From contig NIVC01000114.1 of NCBI GenBank assembly GCA_002269645.1, positions 434,001-498,000 of the forward strand: 64,000 bases of DNA, written 5' to 3'. The DNA is from Macrostomum lignano (lineage: Eukaryota). The notes under the pieces are model-generated. The model ran no database searches and was not told the origin of the DNA. It saw only the letters and a list, made by a program, of their open reading frames with translations. Positions 12,354 through 44,100 of the stretch are shown here, piece by piece. The position numbers were made by a program, and so were the translations under genes. Numbering within the stretch: position 1 is the first letter of the stretch; each line of letters opens with the position of its first letter.

Positions 12354-15300
12354 TCAAGCAATGCAACATGATCTCGCAGTTTTTTGCGAGTCTCCTAACT
12401 CACAAACGTATGGGACTGCACTCTGAGCTGCTACATCGAGTCTCCGTTCCAGTCTCTCCAGCTTCTGCATGACCCAGCCAATCTTCTCCTCGTCCTGCGT
12501 CTCCATGACGACGCGTCTCTCTTTCTCGATCATCTCCATCTGCTGCAGGCTGAGCTTCACGTGCTCGCGGAAGTCGCTGTAGTGAGCCAGAGTGAGCAGC
12601 TCCTCCAAGTCCGGGTCTCCAAGCAGCTGTTCAATCCAATGATCGAATTCGATTGCAGGTGCGCGATTGCGGAGCAGCTCAGCTTGGAGACTCCAGCTCA
12701 GGCAGCGGAAGTTCACGTACAGGTGGGGCTGCGAGAGAGACTGCGACAGTCTGGCTGTGAACAGAGTCTGCGTGAAGTCGGGAAGGAATGGGAAGCGAGG
12801 CGGAGAGTCGCAGGGGAGGCAGAACCTCCACGCCCAGTCTGAGTCTTCTGGCAGTTTTATCTTGTTTTGTAGCCAGTTACCCTTGTCTCGGATGTCGTGT
12901 GGCTTCAACCCTGACTCAACCTGATGTTTCTGCAGCTCCATCGCGAGTCTCTCAGCCTCCCTAGATTCTCCAAATTTCAAATGCGCCATGGCGGTCATGC
13001 ACAGAGCGGCGCACTTGCACCACTGCAGGTCATGCAGGAGACTGAGCTGCCTCATCAGGGTGTCTCTGTCGCTCGATTCCGACTGCAGCTCGCTCACACA
13101 CTGGTGCACCACACTGTACACGTCTGCGAACTTGTAGTAAAACTCTGAAGCATACCTTCTTTCCCTGATCTCCGTGACGGCAGGCGGCGCTGTCAGAGGA
13201 AGCAGAGTGAACAGGTGAAAGTAGAACTTCTCTGACTGCAGAGGTCTCACGAGTCTCCTCAGCTGCTCGACCACTCCGCCGATGTCGCTTCTCAGCTCAA
13301 GAAGTCGGTCTCGAACCCTCGCCTTCGTGTTGTCGAAGTCGCCACCGATTCCAGCGTTCTTGAAGTAGAGCGGAGCGTCGGGCATGAAGAAGTGCGGCAT
13401 GCACTCATCGGTCGAGCTGCTCGAGTCGATGAAGCTCAGCATCATGTCGAGAGACTCCTTGAGCAGAGCGATCAGATTGTGGGGCCGCCAAGCCTCAGTA
13501 TGCCAACTATATGTGCCATGCTTCTCCAGCATTGTGAAGAGCAGAGTCTTTGCATGGTAGGTCTTGAGTCCAGGTGTGTCCAGAGTGAGCGGCAAGTGTC
13601 TCTTGAAGATGAACTTGATGAGTGTGAACAGCTGGCCCTGGACTGTGCTCAGGTCTCTCATGATGTCTTTCTCCTGGAAGCTGAAGCTCACTCTGAGCTC
13701 GTTGGTCGAGCTCGGTCTGGTCGCCCGAACGAGGTGAACATACTGCCCTTTATGAGTCAGTTTTTCAATTCTGTCCTCACAGAAACTGCTACAGCACTGG
13801 ATCGCATGGCACGTGTCCTGTGCAGGCCGCACACCGCACGCCGTGGCTGTCACTGCAGGTTGGCTGCCTGTAGAGCGCAGTGAGCGGAGAGTCGCTTTGT
13901 GGCGAGTGAAAAAGATGGGTTGGTTTAAAACTGCAGATTTTCTCTTAGCTGGTTGGCAATTTCTATCATTCAATGAGAAACAATAGACAAAGAAATAATG
14001 AAAAATACATTATTTGTTGGTGTCTTTTAATTGGCCCTGAGCCTGAGCGCGCTTATTTACACACTTGCTGTTGGCTGCTTGTTAGACGCAAAAGAATTTC
14101 GACGCTCTTTGAAGAGCCAAATTCTTAGGTAAATGCACCTGTGAGGCATGATCATCTGCACCCACGAGCTCGCTCAGCTTCACCTTGAGCTGCTCTGGCT
14201 TCATCAGGCTGCAGCTCAGTACAGCTGCTCAAGCATCATCAGGACTCAGTGCCCCTAGCAAGGCACCAATCAGGCAGTCAGGGCGGCTTCGGTTTATTTT
14301 GTTTGAAATTTTCCAACTGAGAGCAGCGGCACCTCAGCAGAGCCATGCCGCCTACCGTGGGTCACCGAAGCACCGCTGCACCCACTCTGCTGCAATCGGA
14401 GCCTGTGAATTCAAAACCCAATGGCCCGGCTCAGCTAGTTGGCATCAAAGTTTTCTTTTCAATTTTTCCTGCCGCTTGTTTTAGCACCCAAGCCGACATA
14501 CATGCGGATCTCAGCATTCTGCTGATGAACCCAGCCTCACTCACCTGCTCCCACTGCCACCTGTGCGTGGCCCTCCGTGACCTGCAGCCGAGTGGCTACT
14601 TGGCAGGAACCATATTTTCTTTTGCAGCCACCTTCCAGATGGAACTCTTGCTCAGCAACCAGCACAGTCCAGTCAATGTCCGAGTCTGCAGCTGTCCTGC
14701 CGTTCACTTGCACCAGATTGTTGGCCCAGCCCTCTGCGTAGCTGCCCGTCATCTGCCTGCCATCCTGTGTGAGGACTTGAGCGACTTCTTCCAGCCAGTG
14801 AGCCAGTCTTTGCTGACACGTTGCTCTCTCCTCGGTGAATCCCGCATCGTTGAGCAGTCGATGCAGCTTCTCGCTAAGGCGCCTGTCTTGCTGGGAGTCG
14901 TCTGAGAGCCTGGAATGATCCGAGATGCGTGTGGGTGATTTGCTCAGAGTTGCATGGACAGAACAAGCAGGAGAGCTGAGAGTGCAGCTGCTGCAGCACT
15001 CAGACTGGCATCTCAAGCAGGAGAGCTGAGAGTGCAGCTGCTGCAGCACTCAGACTGGCATCTCAAGCAAGAGAGCTGAGAGTGCAGCTGCTGCAGCACT
15101 CAGACTGGCATCTCAAGCAAGAGAGCTGAGAGTGCAGCTGCTGCAGCACTCAGACTGGCATCTCAAGCAAGAGAGCTGAGAGTGCAGCTGCTGCAGCACT
15201 CAGACTGGCATCTCAAGCAAGAGAGCTGAGAGTGCAGCTGCTGCAGCACTCAGACTGGCATCTCAAGCAAGAGAGCTGAGAGTGCAGCTGCTGCAGCACT

Positions 15301-21289: not shown

Positions 21290-22040
21290 GTAATATCACG
21301 CAAACAGCGAGTGGCTATGCTATTGTTCGAAAAAACAGGTTCTCGACATCTATTTTTAGAACTTCCAAATATGGTAAATGTTAACCTGAATGTGACCCAA
21401 GTCTCACCCCTTTCTATTCAAAAATCCCACCTGTCAAATAATAAATTCCTTTCGTGAACTCATCAAAAAACCGGTTTTGAGCTCAAGGTGGACTCAAGGC
21501 CGAAAAATTGTGTATAAATACAAACGCAAAATCCGAGCTGAAATCTCAGACTCGGAGCAGCCTCCAAAGATCTCGGGCTTTGCAAGAGCAGCCAACGAGG
21601 CTATATCTCTGAGGAAGAGATAAACACCAATTGGTAAGCTTTGTTCGAGACTTCGTTATTTTTTATTATTGAGAGCAATTTTATTGCCGGCCGTTACTGT
21701 TCAGTTGATTTTTACTGAGTCTATTGAGTTTGAGGCCTCCCATTTTCCTAAGGGATTGGATAGGATCTGCGGACTGATTCCGAAACCCTTAGAGGATTAT
21801 CGATTGATTGATTTTGGTTATCCTAGATTAACCGATAGGAGTACACTACTCCGATTCCGTTAGTTTTAAAAGAAGACGCCCTTTTGGAGGACCTCGCGTT
21901 ATTATAGAAGTTGATTTTGTTATTAGGGCGCATCGTTGATATTGATTTCCGCACTCGAGGAAATACTGCGACGTCGATTTTATTGTTACGCTCTCACTTT
22001 CGGCCGATTCTAGACTTCAAGAAGATTCCTCCGGAGAAGA
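21290..22040. repeat. Dispersed ~0.7-kb repeat, partner of 5900-6620
   Basis: Inverted homologue of 5900-6620; contains TGTGTATAAATA. Confidence 0.75.
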
Positions 22041-23141: not shown

Positions 23142-26100
23142 ATGAACCTGCTCCCGGAGCTGAAGAGCGCCGCCATGGACGGCAGAGTCGGCAAGGTGCG
23201 GCAGTTTCTACGGAGCAGCGTCAGTCCGGACGTCGCTGACGACCGGCAGCGGACGGCGCTGCACTGGGCAGCCGAGCGAGGCCAGTCCAGGGTGGCGAGG
23301 CTTCTCATCGAGGCCGGAGCTCAGCTGGACGCTCAGGACAGCAGCGGGGCGACCGCTCTGCACCTGGCCTCGATGCACGGTCACCGGGATGCGGTCCGGC
23401 TGCTGCTCGAGTCCGAGGCCGACACCAGCCTGGTGACGAAGTCCAGCTCCTCGGCGCTGCACCTCGCCTCGCGGAACGGCCACCTCGAAGTCGTGCAGCT
23501 GCTGAGCCGGCAGGCCGACTGCGACCAGCAGCTCGCAGACGGAGACTCGCCGGTGCACCTGGCTGCTCAGCTCAGGCAGCAGCTCGTGCTCGCTGCTCTG
23601 CTGCTGGCAGGCGCGGATCCGAGCGCCAGGAATGCGCGCGGCCAGACCCCGCTGCACTCCGCGGCTCTCCACGGCCAGCGGGTCGCCATTGAGCTGCTCG
23701 TCCGGGCGGGAGTCGCCGCCGACTCGCTGGCCAGCGACGGGTCGACGCCGCTGCACGCTGCGGCAGCGATGGGGCACGAGGCCGCCGCCCAGACTCTGCT
23801 GCAGCTCGGCTGCGGGCTCGGCGATCTCAACAGGTGCGGGCTTAGCGCCGCTGCCATCGCCTGTCATTTCGGGCATTGCGAGGTCTTGCAGCTGCTTCTC
23901 AAGCATGCGACTCACGCCAGGGAGCTCGGAATCCGGCACGAGAAGACCAACGAGAGGCTGCAGCGATTCAAGAATTCGCTTGTTCCTGCAGCTCAGTCTC
24001 GCAGCACGTCTTTGCCCGAAGAGCGGTAAGCGTTTGCGTGATGTCAGTGATGAGTCGGTCTATACAGAAGAGTGCACTCGTTTCTCTTTACGCACAATAA
24101 AGATACTCTGTAGCCGATTTAAATCTCGAATATTCGAAATATGCCCTTGCTGGTAATAAGACTGGTAGAGGTCTTCGAGATGTAACCCTGGGAGCCCAAC
24201 TGCTCTTTACTTGTGGTTATAGGAAATCCTGCAAAGCCTTAACTAATCCATCTTCTGATATTTCCGAAACCTAAACTACTAACAGCAGCGTAAAAGAAAA
24301 TTGACGTTACCTTTTAAACTATACTATACATTTATAACACAAGATTTGTCCGGTAAAACGCATGGTTGATGCTATTTCTTACAACAGAGCAACGAAAGTT
24401 TAGAATAAAACCGCAGATACTTTTCAACACCGTCTCCAGCTCTCTCATTAGAACCTCTTGCAAGCATTAAACAGTCTTCACAAGCCTGCAATCGGTGTCA
24501 AATAAGGCTGGATTACCACTCGGTCCTGACCAGATGCTTTTTGTTCCTCACCGGCACATGCGGTCGTGCTCTGCCCTGGTGTTGGGACCCACCGAGCAGA
24601 CAAGCTTATTACTCGTTGCAGATCATGAACAACATGTAGGATATCCTCAATGGCGGTTTGGAATATTCATTCACAAGTTTTCTGCAAGCATTCTCTCTCT
24701 TTCATCATGAGACGTCCGTCCTCCTCAATCAGCACAGACGGTCTAAGACGTGGCAGACTTTGGTTACAAACTCTATCTTGGTAGATGACCTGCAATGTAG
24801 CTTTTTCTGCCTTAAAGAAGACAACAACAGCTTCTATCAGTTTCACCAACATTTCCAGTCTCAAGGATATGAAAGGTAATGCATGGTTAACTGCCGATTA
24901 TGAGCTCATATGCCGCTCTATTAGTGTATGAATTGCTTCTTCTAAAACAGTTATTTACAGTTGAATCTCAGTCCAAAATTTCGACGATCAATCCTCATAG
25001 ATACCCTATTAGACGCTAACAAGGAACCAAATTGTTATACAAATTCAATTAACGTTCTCTGATCAACAGCTTTTGTTATAGAAAGCAGTGGGTTCTGTTT
25101 CATGCAAAATATATACGCGTAGTTTTAAAATGTGCAACAGAAAAACTCACATAGACAGGGCGTAACTCTGATACATTTTGATTTTTTTCTGACTGAGCCA
25201 GCTCGTAACTGTGAAAAATGATCCATGATGCTTTCATTCTGAATGCCAAATGGTTAAATCATCATAGTACGCTTATTCCTAACCTTAATAATACTTCCGA
25301 GATAAATTGTATTCAATGTAATGAATGCGAATGTAAAATGCAAAAAATGTTATGTTTGAAATGTGAAATTTGAAATGTGGTTAAATCATGCATGCATTGT
25401 TGCAAAGATTGGATTGCCCTCGCATTCATTCAATTCAAGTCCTCTCAGCTGGCAGGTTTCCAGTATTCTCCCACGTCAGTCGTTTTGCGTGAATCCCCTC
25501 GTGTAAGAGCGCACGAGCAATACGAGTGCACCCTGTCAACCATTGATATCACTGCAAATACTATTGTTAGTCTCTGGGTCTATTAATCATATAGTCTAAA
25601 AATTGTGTTGCTTTTATTAGTAATAATTAATTGCTAAAATGGTACAACTAAATGAGCCACTGTAACTCACCAAAACGTACAGTGAGCAGCCCGACTCAAA
25701 CAGCCTGCGCGAGGTCCTTATTGATATGGAGGCTGTGGAAGATGAACAAGAAAGTTTGGCAGAGAGCCACAAAAGTGCTCAGCTGCACAGAGCCCTGAAG
25801 GAGTCCGGGTTTGAACTGAATCGTGTGAAACTGCAATCCGCATGTTCTGATGTCCTGCAGCGCATCACTAGAAACCGCCTCGACGCTCAGGAGTACAATG
25901 ACTACGAAGTGTACATCGTCGGGAGCTACAGTGAAGGCTGGTCCAACAGTCTGGTTCGGTTGGATGGCCAAACGGACGCAGACTCCGACATCGACGTCTG
26001 CTTCGTTGCGAAAGGGATGCTTTTTCATCTCAAAGGCTGCTGCAGCTGCATCAACTGCAGCTTCGATGAAGAACAACATAGGGTAGTTGAATATGAAGAC

Positions 26101-29100
26101 GGGCACATTAAGTGGCCTGGATCGCGTAAGAGGATATTGGCTGAAATCTGTGATTTTCATTTTCACTTGTGTACCCTCATTTAGTAGTAGGAGTTAGCAG
26201 AACACGGCCGCAGGAAATTCCGTGGAAATTCCGTCACTGGTTTACGTACTGGAGAGATGGCTCCTAGAGCCCTGATCGCCTAAAACTTACAAGCCTTCGC
26301 TGAGTAGCAGGTATGGGGGAAGGATGAGCATTGCAACTACATGTATAGGATTTCATGTAAGCATAAAGCAGCGGTAGGAGCAGAAAACGAGAAGCGCGTA
26401 TGAATAAAATAAATGGTGGTGCTGCGCGTATAGTGTGCATGTATATGGCTGTGTCTGACTTTTGAGATGGTATAGAGATGCAACTGTTTTTTAATCATTT
26501 ATGCATAGTAGAAGATACTGAAATTATAATAGGCTCGTATGCTTTTAAAAATTTGCCAATTCGCAGGTTTTTGTTTGCTTACTCTTTCGGCCTGTCGCAG
26601 TGAAAGCCACTGAAATTGGGTGGAGCCGCTGCTGTTTTATGTTTGTAATATGCTTGCTTGAATTGAAATCAGCCCAGCACTGTGCCTGCAGTGTGAAGTG
26701 CTGTGCATCTGGAGTGGGGGAGGCTAATGTATACTGGCCAACCCTTTCCTAGCATTCACCCACCCTCCGGCACCCACCCCACTCCGCCATGAGGATATAA
26801 AAGGGCCGGCTTTGAAAAGCATTTTTAAGATCATACTTCACTTTTTAATCTCTGAAGACTTCACGTGAATCATGGACATCGGCGAAGGCTACAAGGTACA
26901 GGTGCAGGAATTTGAAGGGCAAAAATTCATCGCCATAAGGAAGTTTTTTCGGCATGGCAGCAGCGCCAGCCTCAAGCCTGGAGTTCCCGGCTTCAATCTG
27001 AATACGCATCAGTGGGCGAAACTGAAGGAGGTAAAGCGCTCGCTCGTGAAGGCTGCCCTAAGCGGTGAAACCAAGGTTGTGAAATTGGGCTTTGACAAGT
27101 TTATTGAGGTTAGACAAGGAACAATTTGGTTGAAGCGACTGCCCGAGGACTGTTGCGAGGAGTTTCTGAGACGCAACACAGTGCCTCTGTCTCCGCTCTT
27201 GTGGCAAAAACTGTGGCACGCTTCCGGTTGGATTGACAAGCAGCTGGCAGAGCTCTCTCAAAGCATGCGAATGAACTATGAGCTGAGCTCATCTGACGAC
27301 GATGAAGAGGTCACCGTGAAGCTTCCTGTCAAGACTGAGCCGAATGAGGGTGAAGAAGAGGCCCGCTCACCAACAGACCTGACGATCGTTACTGAGCCGG
27401 TGACTTCAACGCCTCTGCCCCGAGCTGGCGCTGGGAACATCCCGTCAGAGGACACAAACTTGCAAGAAGATCCGGTATGGTATCAATTCCGGGCTCATGC
27501 GGCTGCGGTGAACAACAGCAGAAAGCGCAAGTAACCGTGGGCTCTGCGCAGGCAGGATGCGGTCAAGAGGCCGAGGTGGATACCCCGTGACGAGCTGCCG
27601 AACTCGGACGAAGATGATGAGTGAACTTGTTTTTAAATGACAGCGATAGTTCGCATTTTGTATTTCTTTGATTACCATGCGCATATAAAAATTATAATAA
27701 TCGAGAAAAAATTGTGGTAAAAAAAATCAAAATTTATTCAGAAGTTCGCGTGACTTCATTTTCAACAATTTGACTAACAACTTGATTTCATTTAAACTTT
27801 ACTCAGTTTCCTTTTGTTTTGTTTGTAACTGTTCTGAATCGAATCACTGAAGTAAATGCTCACTGTGTTGTGCTCCGCTGAATGCTTGCTTTAGCTTATA
27901 ATATGTTACTGCATGTAAAATACACTGTTGTTCTATCAAACTTTATTCGTCGCAGGTCCTTAAGCATTTAAGAAAGAAAGCTGTCTCAGTTGATTTTTTT
28001 AGCAAATGGAAAAGATATTCTTTAATCCCGAGCAGCCTGCCAGTTTTTCTGGTTGCAACAAACTTCTGAATGAGGCTCGAAAACAAGGTATCAAAGTGGG
28101 AGAAAAATCTGTTAAGAATTGGCTTAACGAACAGGCAGTTTACACTTTACATAAGCCATCAAGAAGAAACTATCCCCGAGCACCAATTGTAGTTCGAGCT
28201 ATGGATGATCAGTGGGAACTGGATCTGGTAGAAATGATTCCGTTCGCAAAGTACAATCACGGATACAAGTATATCCTCACATGCATCGATGTGCTGTCAA
28301 AGTTTGCTTGGGCCAAGCCACTAAAGAATAAATCAGCAGGAGAAGTGCGGTCTGCTTTCGAGGCAATTTTGAAGAGCACGAAGCGCAGGCCGCGAACAGT
28401 TCGTTCAGATCAGGGGAAAGAATTTGTCAACTCAAGCTTTCGACAGAGCTGCATAGAGAATGGCATTTTAGCGTTTAAAACAAACAGCGAGCAGAAAGCA
28501 GCGATTGTAGAAAGATGGAACCGAACTTTGAAGAATAAAATGTGGCGATACTTCACTCACAACAGCACTCTGCACTGGGTAGATGTGCTGCCAAAGTTAG
28601 TGAAGTCGTACAATGCTACTTTTCACAGAAGCATCAGAATGGCGCCAAGAAATGTTTGCAAGCAAAATGAGTCGGAAGTGTGGATGAACCTGTATGATGG
28701 CAAGGCAATAGAAACTTTGGATAAAGTCAGGAAACCAAAGTTCAGTGAAAATCAAACTGTAAGAATTTCTAACGCGCCCCGGCTATTCAAAAAAGGGTAC
28801 AAAGCAAACTGGAGTGAGGAAGTGTACACTGTAGTTGCAAAAGCTCCGAAACATTATCCTTACATGTACAAGATACGAGACATGAAGGGAGAAGAGATTC
28901 AAGGCCTCTTTCACGAGCACGAGCTGCAGGCAGTGCCGGACTCACAGCGACTATACGTGATTGAGAAAGTGTTGAAGACACAAAAGCAAAGAGGGAAAAT
29001 TCGCTATCTTGTCAAGTGGGCCGGCTACGGTTCGACAGGCTGGGTGGATGAAAAAGACTTAAGAAAGGTTTAGCTTTGACACATCCCTCATCATGTAGTT

Positions 29101-32100
29101 TATGATTATAATGCGAACTATTTTGATTAACAGTGAGCATGCTGAAGGTACTCCTAGTGACTTTAATTTTTACCTGTCTTCACCTATTTACTTGGATCGA
29201 AATGTGGACTATGAGGCAGGTCTGGCTGAAATCCATCTGCCTGCTGCATGATTCAATGTTGACGAGCCTTACTGCTTCACTGTCTCAGATGGAAGAGAGC
29301 ATGAGGCCCTGGTTCTTCAACCCGGACGCTTTGCTAGAGTGGAGGAGCTGGTGGAGCGCCTGAATGAGCTGCTGGCCAACTCTGATTCGCTGTTCTTTGA
29401 TGCAATGAGTGACAGGGAGTCTGAGATGGAGGCTGATGAGTCCGGCCTGATGGGGCGTAGTGGCAACAGGGAATTCGGTATGAAGTTCGAAATCCGCAAC
29501 TCACGAACTGTGGTGCACAACAACACTGCGAGAGCAGAGCTGTTTCTTCCATCCAGCAAAATTCTGCATTGGCTGGGATTTGGAAACCAGGCTGTGAAAA
29601 TCCAGCCAGGGAGCCGCGTATCCGAGCATTGCATTGGCTGCCCGCGCACCAGCTTAATCAATGTACACTGCAGTATCGTTGAGTCAACCAACAGGGGCTC
29701 CCTGTTGAGAACAGTCGGAGTGAACGCCAACATTGAATGGGGCAACTACCTGTCAAAAATATTTAAGAAAACAATATTCTTCCCGATTCAACGAATCAGT
29801 CTTCTTCACAGCATTCGAGTTCAGCTGCGGGACTTCTATGGTTGCCCACTGATTGCACAGACTCACAGCCCTGTTCTGCTCACAGTTCAGATTCGGGAGA
29901 AACGCATTCAATGAACTACCAGCAGCTGATCCAGCAATATTCGGGGGTGAGGACAGCACACGAAAAGCCTGCACTCTATGGCTGTGGGAGCTTCCCAGGG
30001 ATCATGACATACCAGCCTCCGCCAGCGGCTACATCATCATCTTCAACGCGTGGCAACGTCAGGCGCAAAAGAAATACTGTAGCAAGTCCGAAACGATTGA
30101 AGAAGAAGAAGGGCACCCGAAAGGCAACTGGTGGAAATCGCAATAAGATGTCAAGCAAGGCTAGTGGGAAAAAGCTTAAGAATAGGAAGACGAAAGCAAA
30201 GAAGAATGCAGCAAGCGGAGGAAAGCGAAAGCGAAAAGTCAGCAAGAAAACTGTGAAACGCGTGCTCGACTCTCTGTCATAGACATGGCTTACGGATTCA
30301 ATCCCAGACTTGATTTATTTAAGACGCCTGTTCTACAAACCTGCATTGAAAAAGCTACTTATGTTGATATTCACCCAGTTAATTCCATTGTTGCAAACTC
30401 CCCCATTGAATTTGACTGCCACCAATCTGCCGATGAATACACAGATCTGCTTAATTCTTTTCTTTATATTCGCTGCCGCCTTGTGAGACTGGATGGGGGT
30501 ATGCTGAGGGAGGATGTTCGAGATGGAGATGGCATCATCACCGAGCGCAGAGACAGTGATGTGCACCCAGAAAATTTTGTTCTGTCTACAGTCTTCTCAG
30601 ATGTAATTGTGAGCATTAACCAGCGAGTGGTGTCTGGTGGAGACCAGCTCTATCCCTACCATGCGTACTTCAAAGCACTAATGAGCTCATCCGATGCCCA
30701 GCAACTAAAACTTTACCCTGCTGGCTTCCTGGAGCCGGACTCGGCACCTGAAGAGCACACGGAGAGTCACAGGGAATCCCAATGGATGGAGTATGCGGGG
30801 CCGCTCTTCAGCGATGTTTCCAGTGCCCAGTGTTTCTGCTAAACAATCTGCACTTGCACATTAAACTGGTGCCCAGCGATGGGGCCTTTGCCATCAGAAG
30901 CCCGAATGCAAACAACGCGGCATACCGAATGGAAATCTCTCACAGCATTCTGCATCTTCGCCGAGTCAAAGTGGTGCCCCACATCAGCCTGGCCCATGAG
31001 CAGGGGCTGACAAACCAAAATGCACTGTATCCCATCGAGCGAACTGAAATGCAGAACTTCATCCTACCCCAGGGTATTCAGTCAAAAAACATTGAAGGAT
31101 TCACTCATGGAAAATTGCCGAAGTTCATCATGCTGGCCTTCGTGAGCCACCGTGCATTCAACGGTCATCATCACGCGAGCCCGTTCCAGTTCCAGAGCTT
31201 CAACCTCAGCCGGTTGGCTCTAAAGAAAGGTGGGGAAACCGTGTGCCACGGCGCCTTCACACCTGAAAACAATTCCTTCGTAAGAGAATACTTGCACTAC
31301 CTGAAAAGCTGTCAATCTGCAAGCCCCACAAATTCGGTCCCGTGGATCCCCTACCAGCTCTTCTCCAACAACACCACGGTGTTTGCATTCGATCTCACAC
31401 CCGAGGGAGCGGCTCTGTGGTACGGACAGAAGGAGGGCAACCTGCGGCTGGAGATTCGCTTCCGACAGGCTCTGGACGAAGCGGTGTCCCTGATTGCTAT
31501 GTGCCTGTATGACTCGCTGATTGAGGTCACCAAGCACCGGGAGCTTTTGCTGGACTATTCCTCTTAACTGGCATGGACGCAATTAAACTATTCAATCTAG
31601 CCAAAAAAATTTTGCCTTGCCAAAAATTTTCTATAATTACTTTACATTTGCGCTATAAAAATTCTCTGTCCTTGAATGTAAAAAGAAAATTTCGATCATC
31701 AATTTCCCTTGAAAACAAGTTTGTTTTTGTTCTACTTCAGCTCAATGGCTCATTTGGTCACTGGGTGGTATGCTATGCTGGGCAAGGAAATTGCATTGAG
31801 CTGTTCAACTCCCTCGGCTGGGAACCTGAAATTTTATCTGTGGTTTATAATTTGTTTCGAGAGATTAAAACAACTGGCTTTTGGCTCCGAAGCAATCTAA
31901 ACAGATTTCAATGTGCTAACTCTAATAAATGCGGAATGTTTTGCATCTATTTTGCTTATCAAAAGTTTCTGTTCAATCGGTCATTTGAGGGGATTCTGAA
32001 GCATTTGCATGCTAATGAAAAAAATCATTTGAATGATAGAATCTTACAGAGGTTTGAAGCCAACTTAAGAAAAAGATGTTCTAGAACTATATTTATGCAT

Positions 32101-35100
32101 TAGACATGGAAGAAAAGCGAGTTTGCTACGATCTCCGCCTCAGGCAGGGAAGCTGCATGATTGTCTGCGGGCCCACCAATGCAGGAAAAACAACCTTTGT
32201 CAAACACCTGATCCAGTACAGAGACGTCATGTTTGATGTGAAGCCTGGCAGAGTTCTGTGGTACTATGGGATCTCACAGGCAGGCCATGCAGAACTGAGC
32301 AGCCTAGGTGTGCAGCTGCGCCAGGGATTTCCCACCAACATCGAGGCAGCACTTAGGCCCAATGACCTGGTTGTTTTCGATGACTTAATAGAGGAAACTT
32401 CAAATTCTGCTTCAATGCGAAATTTTTTCACAGGAATCGCACATCACTTGCCGTGCTTTTTGGTGATGCTGACTCAGAATATATTTTTCAAGGGAAAAGA
32501 GTCGCGAACAATGAGCTTGAATGTAATGTATTTAGCTATCTTGAAAAACCCCAGAGACCAACTGCAGATTGCAGCACTGGGCAGACAGTGCTTTACAGAG
32601 AAGCCCGGCTTTCTGCTGTCAGTGTTCAAGCACGTGACCGCGCAGAACAGGGGAGCCTACCTGTTCCTAGACTTTCACCCATCAACTCCCGATGAGCTGC
32701 GAGTGCGGGCCAGAATTCTGCCCAACCAGCGACCCCATCTTGTATTTGCTTAAGAAAGTGAAGCTTGTTTTTTATCGGCTATTGTTTTCATCGCTATGGA
32801 AGTGCTTGATTCACATGCAAGTATTTTTGCGGTTCTTGCGTCACCTAAATATACCGTGCGCTTCAAGCGGCTGTTGATAAAAAATTGTCCAAAAGAAGTG
32901 CGTTATTTTCTTGTCGAGGCCTGCCATAATCTCTTACAAAACAATCTATCGTTTTCGCTCGATGAAAAAGCTGTTCTTGCAAAGTCAAAAGAGATAATTC
33001 GAAAAATTACTCACCAAAGAAGAAAGACAGACTTGTTGAAGGCTGGCTTCATCAAAATACTCCCGATTCTGCTTAAGCTGGTAAAGAAGAAGAAGCAAAA
33101 TGAACAAATTTTCAGAAATGGTTCTGATTCCTAAAGCAGAGTATGAGATGTTGATGCAGAATTTGAAGCCAAATGAGACTACCACTGAAGCTGACTTGAA
33201 GCAGGCTCAGAAGAAATGCGATGACATCTTGTATGCCGAAGATTGTCCAGAAGATGTGAAAACCACCATGTATCAAAGTGCAATGCAAAGTTTGCTGGCC
33301 AAGCGCAAGCACGCTGGAAAAGAAGGAGTACGCAATGCTGAAGCCAAGTTGATGAAAACAGAGACACCCCAGATGAACACCTGGGAAGAGAAGATCAGCA
33401 AGTCGGTGCCACAGAAATTCAAAACCAGGGCTCGCAGTCTATGGATGATCCTGTCCACCAATCCAGAGTTGATTCGAGTTTGTGAAAACGGGGAGGTGGA
33501 AATCACAGGCACTTCAATCCCTTCCTCAAACATACTGGACTTGATTCAGCACGCAGTGAGGGATTCGTCATGTGAGGGTGAACCAGTTGGGTGGAACGAG
33601 TTCATCGATTTGCTGCAGCAGAAAAAGCTTAATGTTCCGCTTTCCGCTATTGGTAAATCAGTTAAGAAGAAAATGGTAACCAGCAGAGGGGGTGAACTGG
33701 AGAAAGAACAGGCGAGTCTAGTCAAGGGGTACGGGAGCAACACAGCCTGGCTGAAACTGCCTGCCAGAAAATTACATAAGAAGGTGGACTGACTCCGAAA
33801 TTTTCGAAGGAAAGCTGCATCATGAACTACATTGACTTCCAAGGATTCCCGTGCAACAGCACAAGCAAAAACTTTGTTGTGAAGGAGTTGGCAGTTGTTC
33901 AAATCAGAGCGGGAAGCTACCGCATTGCTCACCATGTGTACGCACCTCCGTATCCATGGGAGAGAGTCTCACCTGACATGCGAGTTTACTACAGACAGCT
34001 ATCAAAGAGTGTGCACCAGTTTAAGTGGAGTGATGGAACCCGTCCGTACATGGAACTGGCGGAAGACATTCTGAGCATTGCCAGTGGTCCGATCTGGACA
34101 AATGGGGAAAGGAAGTCTATTTTCCTGACTGAGCTGCTTGGTAGACAGGTTTATAACCTAGAAGATTTGGGAGCACCCTCGACTGAAGATTCAGATACTG
34201 GCTGTGCAGTGAGAAATTCGTTGCTGCACTACAGTTGGCTTAAGCCAAAGTTCTGCATCAACTTAAGAAGCGAGCAGTGTCCGTGGCACACGAGCAGAAG
34301 ATTTGCTGAAGAAGTCAAGGATCGAAATGAGCCCACCAGCTGCAGCCCTAAGAGTGACCAATCTGGTTGGCGGAGTGGATCTGAGGCTGGATGGTGGCAG
34401 GGGCGCCCAGCTGCCTCTACGGGAACTGGCTCTCAGCATGGCTCATGTGATCTACCGGCCCGTCTGGCCCCGGGTGCTCATCAAGCGGATGCGGAGTCCC
34501 AGAGTGACTCTGCTACTCTACCCTACTGGGCAACTGAGCATCTGCGGTGCCAAGACCCACGCAGACGCCAAAAGGGCTGCCCGTCGCTTCGTGGCTATGC
34601 TGCATCGGAGAGTGCCGGCTCAACTGCTGCCTCATCAAACTATTTGTGTTCGAATTAAAACTATTACTGCTCATGGTCAACTTTTGCTCAGTTCTGCATT
34701 GTCCCTACCAAAACTGTCTATGAATTTACCAAAAGCTGAGTATGAACCTGAATCTTTTTCTGCTTTAATTTTCAAGCTGAAGTTTTGTAAATGTTTGCTA
34801 TTTCACCGCGGCTCCTTTGTTCTAAGTGGTGCTCGATCTTTTTTTCAATTGCAAACAGATCTCATGCGATTAAAACGTGTAATTTGTAACTCAGCGTAAA
34901 AATAAATGATTACAGTTAGGAAAGAAGGAAGCTTATAACTAAGCTAATTTTTGCATGAATAAAGATGAATCGTTCTGTCTTCTTTTCATGAGTTTATTAT
35001 TTAATGAAAACACACATACACACACACACACTCCCAATTAAAACACGCATATGACAAACATAAAACAGCAGTGGAAACAATAAATGGATGTAATAAAAAG

Positions 35101-38100
35101 TGCTAAATATTGCTCAAAAGAAAGGAAAATAAAAAAGGTCCTTTGCCTGACACCAATTGGAAAAATGTGCGTTAAAATAGCTATATCAGATTCAGCACAA
35201 ATGTTGCCAACGAAGTGAGCGATGATGAAATTACCGGTATGAGCAAAATGACAGGTTTGTAACGAAACACGACTTAAAAACATGAGAATGTAATTACATG
35301 GGCTATGACAACATAGCAATTACACTTCAGCATGTTGAACGTATTACAAAAGCTATCAGATAGTTTAAAAGAGCAATAAAGCAAATAACTACGAGTACAT
35401 TTTAAGTCATGCGATATTTTAAGTAAATCAAAGCCTATGCGTTAGTTTAAAAATAAATTTGAATATGCTCATAAACAATAATATAAGATTGGAAAATGTC
35501 GAGAAATTTAATGTCGATAAACGAAAGTATGAAAAAAAATGAATTAGACTGGCTTGATTATGGATAGCAATAAATGATGCAATCGTCGTAAGTCGTTCAA
35601 ATAAATGTCAATGATGCATCCCTCACGTTTAGTCACTGTTGAAGATCTGGAGGCCGCTTCCTCTTCCGGGATGGTGCATCAGATTGGCCAAGACGGAAGT
35701 GGCCGAACGGGAGGCTGTCATTTGCGCTGATCCAGGCCCGTTTGTCTTCCCAGATGGTGAGGGCTCGCTTCCTCTGTCGAATTGTGAACACTTCATGTCG
35801 ATGGCTTGCAATTCGGTGTGTAACAACATCAAGCGTCTTCAATGATTCAAATGCAGCAACATAGTCCGCGTGATTAATTTGCTGCTTCAGTACGGCTCTC
35901 TGAATTCCTTTTGCGGCCTTCTTGTGAGCGGAAGCGGCGGAGCTTTGAAAACTTTACAGTTTTGGTCGGAGGAGAATCCACTCTTTGTACTCAATTCCGC
36001 AGGATTCATCCTTGACACAACCGAGTTTGGCTTTCAACTCTGTAGACTTAAGCGGGTGGCCGTCAACATAGTTTGATGTGTCAAGAATCCGCCTTTTGAT
36101 TAACTCTGGCAGGAACTCTTGCACAGGGTCAATATTCCTGATGCAAAGGAAAAAAGAATCTGTGTCACCTCCACAGAGCTGTAGCCGATCTTTCTCGTCT
36201 TCAAACCACGGTTTAAGTTTGTTGTACCACAGCGAATACATAAACAACTTAGATAAATCAAGGACGCACTGACCTATGTAAATTGGTCTGTCCAGGCACA
36301 CGGTTGTTTTGCTCAGCTCAAATATGCTCAAGTCCTGGTTGATGATAATGACTTCTTTTAAATTGGGCTTTGAAGCCAAAACCCTGGCCTTTACCTCGGA
36401 ATTGCAGATTCTGATCAATCTCCGTTTCCTGACGTTTTCCATCGTCTTTCCAAATACCGAATTAATCTTGAGCTTGTAGTAGAACTTCTCAAACTCTGAC
36501 TTTGATGCAATCCTTCGCTCAGTATTCTTGCGAATGTAAGGATCCAGGATAGCAGCCTGCGAGAACTGTATTGCTCGCTTAAATTTAGCGACTAGCATTC
36601 CCTGCTCAATGTAGAATTTCAGAGTTCTGCTGTGAACGACGTAGCTCTGCTTGTCAAAGCAAGTTAGCAACAGTTTTTTACAACTATTATAGTTATGGCC
36701 ATCTGGATTCAAACGTTGCCATAGATCTTGCATGAACTCTGGAAAGTCTGCAAACTCCAGTTGGGATTTCTCCGGTGCCAGTGGCAAGTCACTCGTTTTG
36801 TCATGAATTTCGGGTGGGCAAATCAGGTCAACCTCGACCAGAAATGCTGTTGGCGCAACGTCTGGGTGATTCAAAATAGTGGCATCAGTCCAAGTCATCA
36901 GTTCTTCAGGCTCAACCCACTTGAATTCTTTGTAGGGCAGCTGCATTGATAGCGCAACACCGTAAAGATTATTGACATCAAGAGGAATGAGTGATGCTGA
37001 CTCTTTTGCTGACTTCTCCATCGCCACCTGATGTACATTAACAAAACACATACCACCACGAATACCTTCTTCAAACATCCTATACATTGTGTTGTCAGTT
37101 AGTAGCTCCAGCTTGACTCCAGTACTTTTCAAAGCCGAAGAGAAGGATAGTCCAGGAGTGGATATGAAGTGGACTGGATCTAATCCATCATCTAGAATAC
37201 TAAGACGCCTGAACGACTCAAAGACATCAGCAAGCTGCCTAACATCAAGCTGGAGGTAAGCAAGCATGTAGTCTTTGAAATTCGCTGCACCAAATTCATC
37301 CCATGCCCTCCTCGCTCGTTCATACTGCTCGGTGGTGCATTCACTCTTTGAGAGGGTGCTGAAAAATTCCTGACGAGGTGGTAGCTCGTTTAGCTCCAAG
37401 TCAGCTGTGCTTTGTACAAACTCATAGGGAAAGACACCTTTGGCTTCAAGAGTGACATCAGTGAGAGCGGGATAGAACTCCTTTAGGGATTCGGTGTGGA
37501 TTCGTTCATCCATCGGTAAATCTCTAATAAGAGAGTCTAAACTGCTGCTTAGAAATTGGAAAGAGTCCAAAAATTGGATCGTGGCATAGAGTGGCACAGT
37601 TTTTCCTTGAATAACGACTTCATTAACTTGCACTTCGGCGGTTAGAGACAGGTATTTCTCTGTCGTAATTGGTACAACACTTAGACGCCAGTGCTTCATT
37701 TTTCCCAGTGCTACAGAAAAGAGAAAATGCATGTCGTAGTTCTTTAGGTTATGGAACAGAACAGGTAAATAGCGTCGCTTTAGCTGAGCAGCAATGTTAC
37801 ACTTGGAGCATGCAGCACCTCGAAATTCACCAGACAGGTGATCATGATCCCAAACCTTTAAAATGGTGTCCTCATTGAACTTCTCATGACAGTAATAGCA
37901 CGTATCGGCTGCTTCAAACAGGCTTTGAGCGTTTGGATCAATAATCTTCGGCTGATAACTGTGGCTCCTGTTCCACTCATAAATTTCGCGCGCAAGCTGT
38001 TCAAGAGAAAGAAGAAGTTGCTCAATGCAGTTCTCTGTCGAAGAGGCTGTAAAGGCTTCATACATTGATTTGGAGTCTCTGAGTGCAGGTCCTTTAACAC

Positions 38101-41100
38101 CTGCTCTTTGGACAATCAGATACCCAGCAGCTGCTGGTGTATGATGAGAAATTTTTTGTAGCCCTGCTGGAATTTCAGTGTTCATGGGAACATTGAAGGA
38201 CTCCAAATCTGCATAAACTACAAATGGTGGAGAAACTGTTTTCTCATAGCTCGTAAAGGACATTATGCTCTTTTCTTTGGTGGGCATAATCTCTTTCACC
38301 GTACAGCTGTTTGATTGGTAACAATCTTCACGATGAGCACTAAGACGCTCAGTAGATTTGAAACCTGTCAAGCATCTCTCGCACCATTTTCTCTGGTGCA
38401 GTCCATCATGACTATTGAGCAGACGGTTGAGATTTACAAACCCACACCAATGTCCTTTTTCAGAGTTGTTGGCTTTTGAAAAAAGTAGCAGTGGAACTAC
38501 GATTCTTCCTTCGGCGACTTCTACCTTTGGCTGTCTTAAAACTTCCACTGTTCCATTCTTCCACGTCAGCACAGTGAAGCACACGTTAGAATTTCTTTTC
38601 TCAACTTGTTCAAGGCTGCTAAGTTGAATTGGCTTCGGAATTCCTTCCAAATCGAGTCCAGGAAGCCAAGCCTGATAGGATGAGAGTCGGTGAGGAGCCT
38701 TGCGAATTCTGTCATCATCGTGGTGCAAGACGGCAATGCAAGCGTACAGGAAGCAATCATCACCTGTACTAGGCGGATTTATAACGGCTTGCTTAGCTTT
38801 AAGATCTCTTGGTAGCTCAAACTTGTCAGCATGACCAATATAGTAGCGAATCCGGTCACCGTATGACACAAAAACGTCAACAAAGTTGACACCACCAAGC
38901 ACCCAGCCGCTACCGTTTGTATTTAACAATTCAATGACTCTTTCGCAACCATTCACTTGAGTAGTCCACCAGGCTTCAAAGTCATCAGCTGAATCCAACT
39001 GCCCCATGGGCACGCTAATCCACTTATCCTCTTCAGCCACCATCTCACCTCCTCTCATTCGCTGCATATGTACATTCAATCTCAATTGAGCACGCACCAA
39101 TTTACTCCTGTCAAGCAGTCTCTCCGATAGAATACGCTCTACGTTTGACCTCATAGCTGCTACGCTGGTGAATGCATCTGGAGTAGCCTGATGATCACCC
39201 TGGCCGTGGCCAGGTTCTGCTTGCTGGCGTTGCTGTTGTCGAATTCGAATGGATTCGAGGACTCCATTGTGTGCACTGATGATTCTGTTTGTGAAGTTCC
39301 CACCTGCATTTTTAAAAAGGTTGTTGCAAACTCAAATTATTCTAAGAGTTCACTTTTTCGTGCATTTTGAACTGTAATACTCAGACTTATACTCATTTAA
39401 TGATATGAATTATTTTATTTTTTTCAGATTTAGATTATTTCCTTATAATTTATCATGAAGCAGCTCATATTGGCTAAGCTATAGGAAGCTTTAAATTCTT
39501 TTCATCGAGAGACTTTTGCAAAGAATCCGATTTTTCGCTCGTTATTGGTTAAGATCATGATAATTAAGCTCAGAAACACAACTAACTTTAGGAGAAAACT
39601 TGCTCATACCTTCATTTTCAACGTTGTCTTTATTCTCCATGTGACCTGCGATGCTGGTGGTGATGCTGGTGCTGGTGTTTGTGGCAGTGCTGCTAGCATC
39701 AGTTGGCTCAGACAAGTCTTCCTTGGGCTCAGACCAGTCTACTTCTTCTTCATCTGACTCAGACCAGTCTTCTTCATCTGACTCAGACCAGTCTTCTTCA
39801 TCTGACTCAGACCAGTCTTCTTCATCTGACTCAGACCAGTCTTCTTCATCAGACTCAGACCAGCCTTCGTCATCCGTCTCAGACCAGTCTTCTTCTTCTT
39901 CACAAAACTCAGACCAGCTCTCATTGGTCATAGGCCAATCTTCGCCAGACTTAGCGTAGTCCACCAAAACTGGAGCGCCTTGAATGGACTGAAAGTGTTT
40001 TCAAATCAAAACAAAACCCATATTTCATTTAAATATGCAAATTTAATGATTAAGTTTACTTATTCGCGCTAAGAGCTTGTAATTAATAGCGTTATACAGT
40101 TGTCTAACAGACATGCCACTTTTAATTATTATTTAAAAAAATCCACTGATTTTTTTAATTTGCGAATCAAATCACACAGAATCTATTTATCTATGAGCGT
40201 ACTTATCTAGATCCATTTTTTATAAAGAAGTAAAGCAAAAACTTTGAAAACTCACTTTCACTGTAGCTAATTTACTAGCAAGTTTATTTTGATTCAGTAG
40301 GGCATGCAATGTTTATTACCTGACAATTAACAGCAGCGAGCTCCATTTGAAACTGCAGCATGCATGCATAAGTTTAAAGAACACTGACCAAGAGTTCGAA
40401 ACATTAGATAAGTTTATTAAGCAATTATATTAGGTGAAAAGTACATCATAAAAATCATTTAATCAACCTATATCCCCTATAGCAACACACCCTAGCATTT
40501 GAAGTAGTCCTGAAAACCATTACAAGCAAAACAGAAGCTGATATGGGTTTCGTTTGAATATTAATATTTGGATAGTGCACACACACAAGTATTTCTTTTT
40601 CTACTCCAATATCCTCATGAATGCTTTACCAACCCACGGTTCTAATATATTGTAACCAACGTCCACACTCCACACCAACCCAAATAAAAACGAATTTGTA
40701 TGAGTACAGAGAAAATAAAATAGGAAATTACAACGGGGTAAGAGTGATTTTATTGCCGTCAACTTGCACAACATACCCAGCTCCACTCACGTGCGGCAAT
40801 AGCAGATTTAAAGTAAAATAGTTAGCACCAGCATTTTCATTAATATCAGCAACATTTGCCGGCGTCATCGTCGTCGTTGGCAGGTCGATGGATGCTAGCA
40901 GCTCATTGAGCTCATCATGACCATTTGCAACAGTAACAGCTGCATCAGTGACTGTGGCTGGAATTTTGGTTGAAGCAGCAGAGTCGGCGCCAACCGGGAT
41001 ACCAGCAGCAGCAGCTGAGTCGGCGTCAACCGGGACACCAGCAGCAGCAGCTGAGTCGGCGCCAACCGGGACACCAGCAGCAGCAGCAGAGTCGGCGCCA

Positions 41101-44100
41101 ACCGGGACACCAGCAGCAGCAGCTGAGTCGGCGCCAACCGGGACACCAGCAGCAGCAGCAGAGTCGGCGCCAACCGGGACACCAGCAGCAGCAGCTGAGT
41201 CGGCGCCAACCGGGACACCAGCAGCAGCAGCTGAGTCGGCGCCAACCGGGACACCAGCAGCAGCAGCTGAGTCGGCGCCAACCGGGACACCAGCAGCAGC
41301 AGCAGAGTCGGCGCCAACCGGGACACCAGCAGCAGCAGCTGAGTCGGCGCCAACCGGGACACCAGCAGCAGCAGCAGAGTCGGCGCCAACCGGGACACCA
41401 GCAGCAGCAGCTGAGTCGGCGCCAACCGGGACACCAGCAGCAGCAGCTGAGTCGGCACCAACCGGGACACCAGCAGCAGCAGAAGCAAAGCCGTCAAGTT
41501 CGATGTCTTCCTCCATCTCGTCGCCTTCTTCTTCAATCATCGAACTATCGATTTGAACCATTTGCTTGCCTCTTATGGATGGAGCACGTCTAATAGGTAC
41601 AATGGCTTGCACTGCGTCAGCTGTCTCAGTTTCCATTCCATTGTTTGGCTGAGGAAGTATCGAGGGTTCTCTAGTATTTACGTCTACGAACTCATCGCTG
41701 GAACTTAGGCTGTCGTTTCGAGCTTGAATTACACCATTAATTACTTGACTGAGCACGCTCGATCGCTGCTTGGCTGCTGCCACTTCCGCCGTTTGATGCT
41801 CCATGTGTCGCCTCGCCGCTCCCATTACCATTCGTCGAAAAGATCGCGCTGTGTCTTTAGTCCCAGGCAGCAATTGGTGACCCCGATGAGCCTTAGATTG
41901 CTTAGCGCTCTTCTTCGCTTCATATAGAGAAACCTTTGAGCACTGCCAGCAGACACTCCACTTCGTCACGTTCGTGCAGTTTTTATGTCGATCCGGTCGG
42001 AGTCCACCTTGTTTGCATTTTTTACAAGTCATGCACACCTCGTATTGCCAATCGGACGACATTCTAATTTGAAATCATTCACTAATAATCGCTACTTGAT
42101 CTTCAGCTGCTGCTCCTCTCTATTTATATTCTTTTCAAATTTACTATCAGCAGTAACGGGCCAGCAGATCTTATATAGGATCCACTTCAATGCATAGCGT
42201 TATACGTTTATAATGGCCTTTTATTCTCAAGTAAATACAAGCAGCCAGTGTAGACTCCATATACCCTCGGCCTCAAGTTTAAATTATCTTATAAAAACGA
42301 AAGGGCCCATTTCATCCTTTTTCAAAACGTTATGCCGACGCATGCATAATACAAACCGTTGCTTTATGACGAAAACAACTTGGAATATAATCTTTAACAG
42401 TAATGGTTCAAAACTTTATTGCCCCTATCGAGCCAGCCAGACAACCCCGATATCACTTCGCTGCAATGCGTTATCTGGAGGGGGCGAAAATTCAAGGCTA
42501 CCTTAAATCAGTTTACAACTTAATTGATCTCTGAAGAAGGCGCAGCCATACTTTGCAAAAAAGAAGCTCCAGGCCGAAAGAGTAAGCAAACAAAAACCTG
42601 CGAATTGGCAAATTTTTAAAAGCATACGAGCCTATTATAATTTCAGTATCTTCTACTATGCATAAATGATTAAAAAACAGTTGCATCTCTATACCATCTC
42701 AAAAGTCAGACACAGCCATTTACATGCACAGTATACGCACAGCACCCACTATTTATTTTATTCATACGCGCTTCTCGTTTTCTGCTCCTACCGCTGCTTT
42801 ATGCTTACATGAAATCCTATACATGTAGTTGCAATGCTCATCCTTCCCCCATACCTGCTGCTCAGCGAAGGCTTGTAAGTTTTAGGCGATCAGGGCTCTA
42901 GGAGCCATCTCTCCAGTGCGTAAACCAGTGACGGAATTTCCACGGAATTTCCTGCGGCCGTGTTCTGCTAACTCCTACTACTTCATTTGCATCATTTTAC
43001 CAAAAGCATCATTTTCCTAAAAGCTCACCCACTGAAAATTTCGCCCCAAACAGCCTCGAATCCGTCGCAGACCTGGGCCGGGTCGGAGGTCAGACCGGCA
43101 GTCGATCTTGTGTGGGCGTTCCGCTGCTGTTGCTATCCAAAACTGGAAGTGCTGCGGCCAGGGTACAGAACTCACATTGCGCCATCAGTGCTGCAGAGCC
43201 TGAGGCAGGAGATGCTGGAGTCTCCATGTCACCTGGTGGCAGCGGCTCCCCCCGGCAAGGACGGACAGCAGCTGAGGATCAGCACCACCTTCCTGGAACG
43301 AAGGCTGCTCAGAAGCCTCACAACTGAGCAGGGACACGTGTTCGTGCTCATCAAGTTCATCATTAAGAAAGTGATTGCAGCTCGAGCCAATGGACTCAAG
43401 ACCTACATAGCCAAGAGTCTGATGTTTTACCTGCTGGATGAGACGCCTGCTGGCTACTGGCAGTCCGAAAACCTCATCAGTCTGGCGAAACGAGCACTTT
43501 CGATTCTGTTGCGGTGTCTGCTGGACAAGGATATTTCAGATGCGGACAAGTGCATGAAGCACTTCTTCATGAGAGATGCCTGGGTGTACTTAAAGAGGCG
43601 CCACAGTGGAAAGAAGCTCATTTCAGATGTTGTGATTGACATCATCGAAAAGCTGTCTGAAGTTGTGTCGTGTTTTTACGAAACGCTGCGACCACTGGAG
43701 GATGCGAAAAACTTCAGCTTTCATCCGTTCCTGGTGCTGCCAGTTTTGATTCCGAGGCCAGTTCCGATGGCATCAAACCTGCAGTTCCACGATGTGTATG
43801 ACGCGATCCGGTCCATTCTGCTGAACTTGGCTCATGAAGAGTGCCGCGAAGAAGACAAAAAGGTCATGATGAAGCTGGCTCGTAGAGTTCCCAACTACGC
43901 TGCATGTCCGAAGTACTGCCTCTTCGCGCTGATCTACTTGAAATTCGAAATGCGCTACGCGGCGCGAAGGGTCTTGCGCTCGTTCCGCTATCACCAGGTC
44001 AGCCGAGGACTGTCACGCTGGAAGGTGCGCGCCACTGACGCAGAGTCTGAGTTGGCGGTGTGGCAGCACCTGGAAAGAGCCAGTTCGGTTTGGAAGCTCC

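Follow-up and report, generated by a model that had tools for sequence, protein, structure and literature searches.

Why would a Polinton, an element that encodes no RNA polymerase, carry a TATA-binding protein (TBP)? The question is raised by a 64,000-nucleotide stretch of the Macrostomum lignano genome (contig NIVC01000114.1, positions 434,001 to 498,000; hereafter the window, whose own numbering is used throughout). A Polinton/Maverick element of 16.8 kb occupies positions 26183–42982, and the final plus-strand gene of its cassette, an open reading frame (ORF) at 34327–34899, encodes a divergent TBP of 190 amino acids (aa) with two repeats and without an N-terminal extension. An earlier note on this DNA, made from its letters alone, had placed the gene last in the cassette and inside the terminal inverted repeats (TIRs), and both the ORF map and the TIR coordinates bear this out. 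We conclude that 34327–34899 is a real, old and selected Polinton gene whose product belongs to the TBP fold family and is not a canonical TBP. The function that we favor, at a probability of about 0.6, is that of a viral late-promoter TBP, which would recruit host TFIIB and RNA polymerase II (Pol II) to a variant TATA box.

The protein matches Pfam PF00352 over two stretches (E 1.1e-23; 83.3 bits against a cut-off of 22.9), and a sequence search of the Protein Data Bank (PDB) returned 35 entries at E ≤ 1, all of them TBPs or TBP fusions. An AlphaFold2 model generated from 16 sequences (pLDDT 89) has human TBP as its top structural match (Z 19.6, RMSD 2.2 Å over 175 residues), and the first row that is not a TBP appears at Z 8.7. 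The two homologous saddle repeats of the family, which had been proposed from the ORF alone, are thus seen both in the Pfam match and in the model superposition, with the TBP core spanning residues 4–190. The named relatives, 88–89% identical, are M. lignano proteins. The host carries separate TBP and TRF2 genes, and the viral protein is only ~25% identical to host TBP. In a 46-sequence tree, the proteins of two element lineages, A and B, cluster together (99/95) outside the group of eukaryotic TBP and TRF2 (98/81), on long branches; by this placement, read with those branch lengths in mind, they are not orthologs of eukaryotic TBP. Nor do they belong to TRF2/TBPL1, as host TRF2 has Y, R, H and F at the four phenylalanine positions discussed below and groups elsewhere. 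A recent capture from the M. lignano host is excluded. The best matches in BFVD were TBPs of nucleocytoplasmic large DNA viruses (NCLDV; E 2e-10, 12–20% identity), and the Atlas places the viral TBP with short TBP clusters labelled nematode, chordate and NCLDV, which we treat as a lead only.

A genome search with the viral TBP gave 152 matches from 150 of the 233 candidates scored. Lineage A copies are mostly 73–100% identical to it, fragments included, and the 10 listed copies of lineage B are 38–39% identical (36–39% being the overall range given for B); elsewhere, B and A share ~40% identity in the capsid, 44% in the ATPase and 57% in the integrase. The order ATPase, ORF, ORF, ORF 33822, TBP, on one strand, recurs in each of the 10 A and 8 B copies that were inspected (18/18). 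A third lineage, D/E, has a far-diverged TBP-like ORF next to another polymerase family. The copy tested had no Pfam match; support comes from HHalign (84.5% to alignment A5, and 96.8% between A6 and A1), from a profile search of the PDB in which TBPs came first (E 1.4e-8), and from a model that resembles TBPs most closely (Z 11.6), with an RMSD near 10 Å and an unreliable arrangement of the lobes. This ORF was matched 72 times among 79 candidates, adjoins protein-primed DNA polymerase B (pPolB) sequence in 6/6 loci fetched, and forms a long separate branch in the 46-sequence tree. Four TBP profiles that detect D/E found no match in a complete copy of lineage C, which lies between 365-bp inverted repeats. 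Two pPolB loci groups, C1945 and C491, and C234 likewise gave no TBP match; as these may be incomplete elements, they were not used as controls.

Both halves of the TBP gene are under purifying selection. Compared with three A sub-lineages, the first repeat has a nonsynonymous divergence (dN) of 0.06–0.08 and a synonymous divergence (dS) of 0.35–0.54 (dN/dS about 0.13–0.22), and the second a dN of 0.18–0.40 with dS from 1.2 to saturated (dN/dS 0.10–0.17 where dS is estimable). With the gene present and selected in sister copies, the idea of a one-off capture fails. A captured host gene might nevertheless persist as a functionless passenger, its first half kept solely by an overlapping frame, and such a frame does exist. 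The upstream gene, ORF 33822 (33822–34658, plus strand, 278 aa), begins with a conserved domain of ~160 aa that contains a D-x-[QE]-G motif, has no Pfam or PDB match and may be DEDD exonuclease-like; its low-complexity tail is overprinted on repeat one of the TBP (34327–34658). The overlap does reduce synonymous change there, the dS of 0.35–0.54 comparing with 0.61–0.94 in the core of ORF 33822. However, dN exceeds dS in the overprinted tail, whose peptide is not conserved, so that the TBP frame is the constrained one; in the second repeat, which the overlap does not reach, dN is again far smaller than dS; and the A and B proteins cluster outside cellular eukaryotic TBP and TRF2. We regard the passenger explanation as largely refuted already, and give it very little weight.

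The overprinted frame is open in both A and B. It stops at one common codon in 36 of 38 A rows, which include some loci twice (one of the others stops earlier, one a codon later), and in lineage B it ends 122 codons in, in 7/7 uncut rows. Synonymous simulation gives such an open frame by chance in 3–7% of cases for A and 0.2–2% for B. The GC content of third codon positions falls from 0.60 to 0.26 at the end of the tail. Just beyond, at 34672–34678 on the plus strand (TBP codons 116–118), lies a recombination junction, across which DNA identity to sister copies drops from 94–100% to 62–76%. A single type of first repeat is found fused to six types of second repeat, of which two are similar, and divergence begins at 34672–34678 in 15/16 rows; dS is at most 0.1 upstream and 1.4–2.1 in the second repeat, and the polymerases behind the junction are ~48% identical among copies. 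The sharp junction, the dS contrast and the diverged polymerases imply that one virion arm has recombined onto several polymerase arms, producing in-frame chimeric TBPs. The simplest cause would be that homology ends where the overlap ends. Splicing at 34672–34678 was considered and rejected, as GT follows the junction in some types only.

If the protein selects promoters, what would it read? The octamer YWTAAGAA occurs eight times in the element, strictly on the plus (coding) strand, and precedes 8 of the 11 cassette genes. Each occurrence is the nearest before a different gene, and seven lie within 31–110 nt of the ATG. TTTAAGAA at 27967–27974, in non-coding DNA, is 39 nt before the integrase gene. 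The putative minor capsid gene is preceded at 53 nt by CTTAAGAA (29058–29065), and the basic core-like gene at 149 nt by TTTAAGAA (29762–29769), a spacing that is 140 nt in lineage B. The CTTAAGAA at 30175–30182 stands 110 nt ahead of the gene for the putative major capsid protein, as against 105–107 nt in lineage B. The same CTTAAGAA recurs at 32064–32071, 42 nt before the packaging ATPase, and at 32749–32756, where it overlaps the ATPase stop codon 47 nt before the ORF at 32796. CATAAGAA at 33775–33782 is 47 nt before ORF 33822, and a last CTTAAGAA, at 34262–34269, lies 65 nt before the TBP gene itself. Three reading frames are represented among the boxes, and one box lies in non-coding DNA whose flanks cannot be aligned. 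A CTTAAGAA 42–47 nt before the integrase is present in 4/5 representative upstream types and lost in one. YWTAAGAA is not enriched across the 64-kb window (11 occurrences, 9.0 expected); the signal is one of position and strand.

An unbiased search for 6- and 7-mers returned TAAGAA or CTTAAGA as the top word in three A sub-lineages, and random non-overlapping zones equalled the observed result in 1, 0 and 8 of 2000 sets. An initial null, whose random zones could overlap and in which 77–151 of 400 sets did as well for A, B and D, was set aside because words shared between overlapping zones inflate it. Boxes within coding sequence in A also exceed those in synonymous shuffles (5 against a mean of 0.83; 6 against 1.6). 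With the motif fixed, YWTAAGAA precedes 4/9 ORFs of at least 100 aa in B (random 6 of 20000), 0/13 in D, and 0/15 and 1/8 in C, where no word was enriched (random sets equalled the best in 1673 and 1280 of 2000). The D/E lineage uses TATAAGCA in place of YWTAAGAA: WTAAGCA precedes 4/13 ORFs and YWTAAGAA none, and in D, W/T-TAAGCA is found 19–96 nt before five consecutive-region genes. In lineage B the boxes grade into canonical TATA (TATAAGAA, TATAAAAG), and the TBP gene there has TATAAAAG at −53. In its positional enrichment, the putative box is comparable to the variant TATA box that stands before late genes in herpesviruses. These eight boxes are our candidate targets of the viral TBP. The earlier note had proposed instead the TATAAAAG at 26796. 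That canonical TATA box exists (26796–26803, plus strand), but it lies 76 nt 5' of the PC4-like gene, which has no YWTAAGAA in this element and has a canonical or near-canonical TATA in A and B; it is probably the wrong target, and probably a host-TBP site serving an early promoter.

The residues facing DNA and TFIIB were mapped in yeast TBP numbering on alignment A5. N69, V71, I103, R105, T112, L114, E186, E188, F190, L205, F207 and V213 are kept; the changes are R98W, F99P, A100R, F116Y, V122S, T124C, N159T, V161T, L189S, P191S, V203K and T215S. By sequence alignment, the four intercalating phenylalanines (yeast 99, 116, 190 and 207) correspond to Pro48, Tyr65, Phe144 and Phe159, so the earlier view that all four remain aromatic holds for the last three and fails for the first. 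Trp47, which had been assigned to that position, pairs in three sequence alignments with Arg98, one residue before the Phe99 column, and may stack on DNA from there. As had been noticed, the first asparagine is kept and the second replaced (Asn69 is N12, Asn159 is T112); both residues are invariant in 16/16 A/B sequences, and the canonical pair of asparagines is therefore absent. The acidic C-terminal stirrup, E140-P141-E142, is present, with E140 and E142 invariant in 16/16 A/B sequences, and acidic stirrup residues are described as required for TFIIB contact (PMC12529657). The equivalent of Pro191 is Ser or Thr in lineage A and Asn in lineage B, and N12, V14, T61, L63, Y65, T112, F144, K155 and F159 are invariant across both. 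That many of the changes are fixed across A and B points to a surface that has been rewired, not decayed. According to PMC1636458, the C-terminal repeat of TBP reads the 5' half of the box, Pro191 excludes bases other than T at box position 1, and wild-type TBP tolerates G at position 6. The loss of Pro191 and the fit of G at position 6 are consistent with C/T at position 1 and G at position 6 in YWTAAGAA.

Some short orphan TBPs from other datasets (P0095, P0097, P0155, P0027 and P0039) carry Asn159Thr and Val161Thr as well, and in P0095 and P0097 the Phe99 and Val203 positions are moreover occupied by Pro and Lys, respectively. We consider all five candidates for further Polinton TBPs.

How might these parts work together? 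In the scheme that we favor, host TBP would start the programme at canonical TATA boxes, namely those of the PC4-like gene and ORF 40728, and in lineage B also that of the TBP gene. The viral TBP would then saddle and bend YWTAAGAA, a putative promoter element, and its kept acidic stirrup would draw host TFIIB and Pol II to the genes for integrase, capsid, core, ATPase and their neighbors, giving an order of early and late expression. In lineage A, the TBP gene lies behind its own box, which would provide positive feedback. Three sequencing runs guessed to be RNA and one that is probably DNA have identical coverage profiles over the cassette, and their contigs therefore show presence only.

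The earlier note had left the choice between a promoter-selectivity factor and a decoy. A lineage-specific box before cassette genes favors selectivity, if indirectly, and a decoy leaves the box unexplained. In its fuller form, the decoy explanation holds that the boxes are weak TATA variants for host TBP or TRF2, and that the viral TBP titrates TFIIB, TFIIA, NC2 or Mot1, or relieves repression of host TBP. It draws on the tolerance of wild-type TBP for G at position 6, and on the better conservation of the TFIIB stirrup than of the DNA-facing residues, several of which equal null changes in yeast (PMC2265533, Table 1). We find it unlikely, although the least so of the alternatives: three lineages in one host have different boxes and a TBP each, and the lineage without a TBP has no box; CTTAAGAA departs from TATAWAWR at three positions; and the altered DNA-facing residues do not vary across A and B, a constancy for which a pure decoy would have no use.

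The strict orientation of the box, its variable distance from the ATG, the tight packing of the genes and the one clear polyadenylation signal at their end would also suit a signal acting on RNA, in the processing of a polycistron, trans-splicing or translation, with the TBP acting elsewhere. The likely host does resolve operons by trans-splicing (PMC8629364). The acceptor given in that source, [T/C]TNCAG, differs from the box, however, several integrase leaders lack any AG from the box to the ATG, and the lineage B box grades into canonical TATA as described above, all of which makes an RNA signal improbable in our view. We would put at a similarly low level the proposal that the viral TBP binds the boxes as a repressor silencing integrated copies, or in order to bend DNA for replication or packaging. 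Negative autoregulation would fit the box ahead of the TBP gene itself, and the second TBP repeat is exchanged along with the polymerase arm; against this, the boxes precede genes, none is found in the terminal repeats, and the TFIIB-binding residues are retained.

Several points count against a late-promoter TBP. Table 1 of PMC2265533 gives Phe116Tyr, Leu189Ser and Val203Lys as nulls for DNA binding by yeast TBP, and since the viral TBP combines these with F99P and N159T, its DNA binding may be weak. TATAAGAA in B and TATAAGCA in D/E could be readable by host TBP, because the wild-type protein tolerates G at position 6 (PMC1636458). The TBP gene of lineage A stands behind the variant box, so the first TBP molecules would need another route. 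The protease gene and ORF 33100 have no box, and the distance from box to ATG varies from 35 to 149 nt. On the statistical side, the limits of the upstream zones were picked after the data were seen; the excess over synonymous shuffles is weak in B (2 against 0.49, P 0.055), where the top unbiased word is AAAAAC and not the box (31 of 2000); the D signal (top word TATAAG, 49 of 2000) comes mainly from one copy; and the TBP-less control is a single lineage, C.

The element is a Polinton/Maverick by its long TIRs, its AG...CT ends, its 6-bp target-site duplication, and its pPolB and retroviral-type integrase, both identified by Pfam. The left copy of the target-site duplication (26177–26182, plus strand) has an identical hexamer at 42983–42988. 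The termini read AGTAGT...ACTACT, and the left TIR (26183–26594, plus strand, ~410 bp) pairs with the right TIR (42570–42982, minus strand) at 98–99% complementarity. All cassette genes lie on the plus strand. The PC4-like coactivator/ssDNA-binding domain gene is at 26872–27534 (Pfam PF02229, E 1e-7); this gene is 5' of the integrase in A, and in B it is convergent with and downstream of TBP (L032, L036). The integrase with its chromodomain follows at 28006–29073 (Pfam rve, E 1e-13). Next are a putative minor capsid (penton) gene, broken up in this copy (29111–29914), a small basic protein that is a putative core protein (29911–30282), and a putative major capsid gene split here into two ORFs near 30.8 kb (30285–31567). 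The core label is inferred, and the capsid labels derive from position, size and conservation across lineages, as a Pfam scan gave no match for either putative capsid gene. The adenovirus-type protease (31573–32103; Peptidase_C5, E 0.002) and the A32-like packaging ATPase (32106–32753; Pox_A32, E 0.011) are weak assignments below the Pfam cut-off, for which the best matches are the families expected in a Polinton; a Pox_A32 search across the genome found nothing. Two ORFs of 112 and 230 aa at 32796–33792, the second of them lacking a box, have no assigned function. An AATAAA polyadenylation signal (34901–34906, plus strand) directly follows the TBP stop, and among 27 distinct downstream sequences, 20 have an AATAAA no more than 100 nt past the TBP stop. 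On the minus strand lie pPolB, convergent with TBP (35954–39154; DNA_pol_B_2, E 1.6e-22), and ORF 40728, of 444 aa with tandem repeats (40728–42062), which has a canonical TATAAATA 66 nt upstream.

Judging from sequences at 25726–26184 and 43212–44384, it seems that a Mab-21/cGAS-like nucleotidyltransferase gene is interrupted by the Polinton. Two further Mab-21 genes (460–1851 and 12354–13661) and ankyrin ORFs lie near it in the window. A degenerate inverted-repeat pair (5983–6570 and 21331–21962), ~15 kb apart, encloses reverse transcriptase, SAP, Mab-21 and ankyrin ORFs.

Other observations concern the remaining lineages. Where homology to TBP starts, the frames of lineage D/E lack an ATG (L114:8251, L119:2421, L121:5333, L122:5318, L123:5181, L124:4481); they begin in phase 0 after a pyrimidine-rich AG in 6/6 loci, five of which fit [T/C]TNCAG, the trans-splice acceptor reported in PMC8629364. 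As the flatworm spliced leader is described as ending in ATG (PMC8629364, PMC12582326), the D/E TBP may take its start codon from the leader of the host; an upstream cis exon is the alternative. In two D/E copies (L122:3939–5345, L123:3802–5220), the TBP shares an open frame of ~470 aa with a nucleoside/nucleotide kinase-like domain, the kinase gene being separate from TBP in other copies. Lineage E copies include dUTPase genes (L114:450–1088, L115:4573–5259), and in lineage C adenovirus protein X/mu is weakly matched (L103:124–1107, E 1.4e-4). Scans of IMG/VR found no relative. A metagenome scan gave 40 loci, in which TBP alone was matched out of 25 Polinton and TBP queries (tblastn), and a profile of short divergent TBPs retrieved mainly cellular TBPs.

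For the question of how and when Polinton capsid genes are expressed, a dedicated TBP and a short box offer a handle: the box would predict late genes and their start sites, and TBP transcripts would mark copies entering the productive programme. More broadly, and with the odds about evenly balanced, we propose that a broad branch of animal Polintons has an autonomous early-to-late transcription switch within ~17 kb, in which lineage-specific rewired TBPs are paired with private TATA variants (YWTAAGAA, TATAAGCA) and, having neither a viral polymerase nor a partner complex, work through TFIIB and Pol II of the host. Many such TBPs would probably escape Pfam. If true, these would be natural altered-specificity TBP–promoter pairs, with lineages in one cell not fully cross-activating each other, and the natural specificity variants would be useful for studies of TATA recognition.

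The TBP gene by itself is not wholly new, since it is in print as a figure label; new is the comparison, within one genome, of three TBP-bearing lineages with distinct boxes and a TBP-less lineage. TBP is named in the legends of MELD virus genome maps (Starrett et al., PMC8502044, Fig. 5; bioRxiv 697771, Figs 5 and 6). In our literature search, which had subscription papers and Repbase outside its scope, TBP was tied to Polintons or Mavericks only in those legends. One supplement of that study contained no TBP match, and TBP and TATA terms are absent from PMC10120064, PMC10748475 and PMC11161782 (text and supplements) and from the main text of PMC8097293. The earlier remark that TBP is not a standard Polinton gene stands for the literature searched, qualified by the MELD virus label. 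The likeness to MELD virus, a mid-size virus with an adintovirus-like polymerase and a TBP-like gene (PMC8502044), is by label alone: the name appears in a legend of the section on non-animal datasets, which contains no analysis of function, promoter or spread.

Among better known systems, the TAAG core common to all boxes found here recalls baculoviruses, in which TAAG is the core of late promoters and is read by a viral RNA polymerase. The Polinton encodes no such enzyme, and the likeness may be due to chance. Cellular TBP and TRF2/TBPL1 have in common with the Polinton TBP the fold, N69/V71/T112/L114, F190, F207 and the acidic stirrup, and cellular TBP differs from it by F99P, F116Y, V122S, T124C, N159T, V161T, P191S and V203K. 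Homologs in Nucleocytoviricota and mirusviruses share the viral TBP fold, but they reside in far larger genomes, and the Polinton protein is less identical to them than to cellular TBP. Many of these viruses encode their own RNA polymerase. Mirusvirus-like elements with TBP are also mentioned in PMC10675990. A close parallel to the proposed function is the TBP mimic of beta- and gammaherpesviruses, such as ORF24 of KSHV (Kaposi's sarcoma-associated herpesvirus), where a virus without its own RNA polymerase likewise has a TBP-fold protein and a variant TATA box (TATTWAA) before structural genes (PMC12529657). As described there, ORF24 carries additional domains, contacts Pol II directly, depends on five partner proteins, and keeps the four phenylalanines and the proline without the acidic TFIIB residues. 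In contrast, the Polinton TBP is a bare 190-aa core with the acidic stirrup kept, the proline lost, and no extra Pol II-binding or C-terminal domain; no partner complex was identified for it, the three unassigned ORFs having been compared by Pfam only. Most likely its mode of action resembles that of the late TBP mimic of herpesviruses, to whose system it does not itself belong. If so, it would represent a far smaller and apparently independent answer to the problem that beta- and gammaherpesviruses solve with six proteins.

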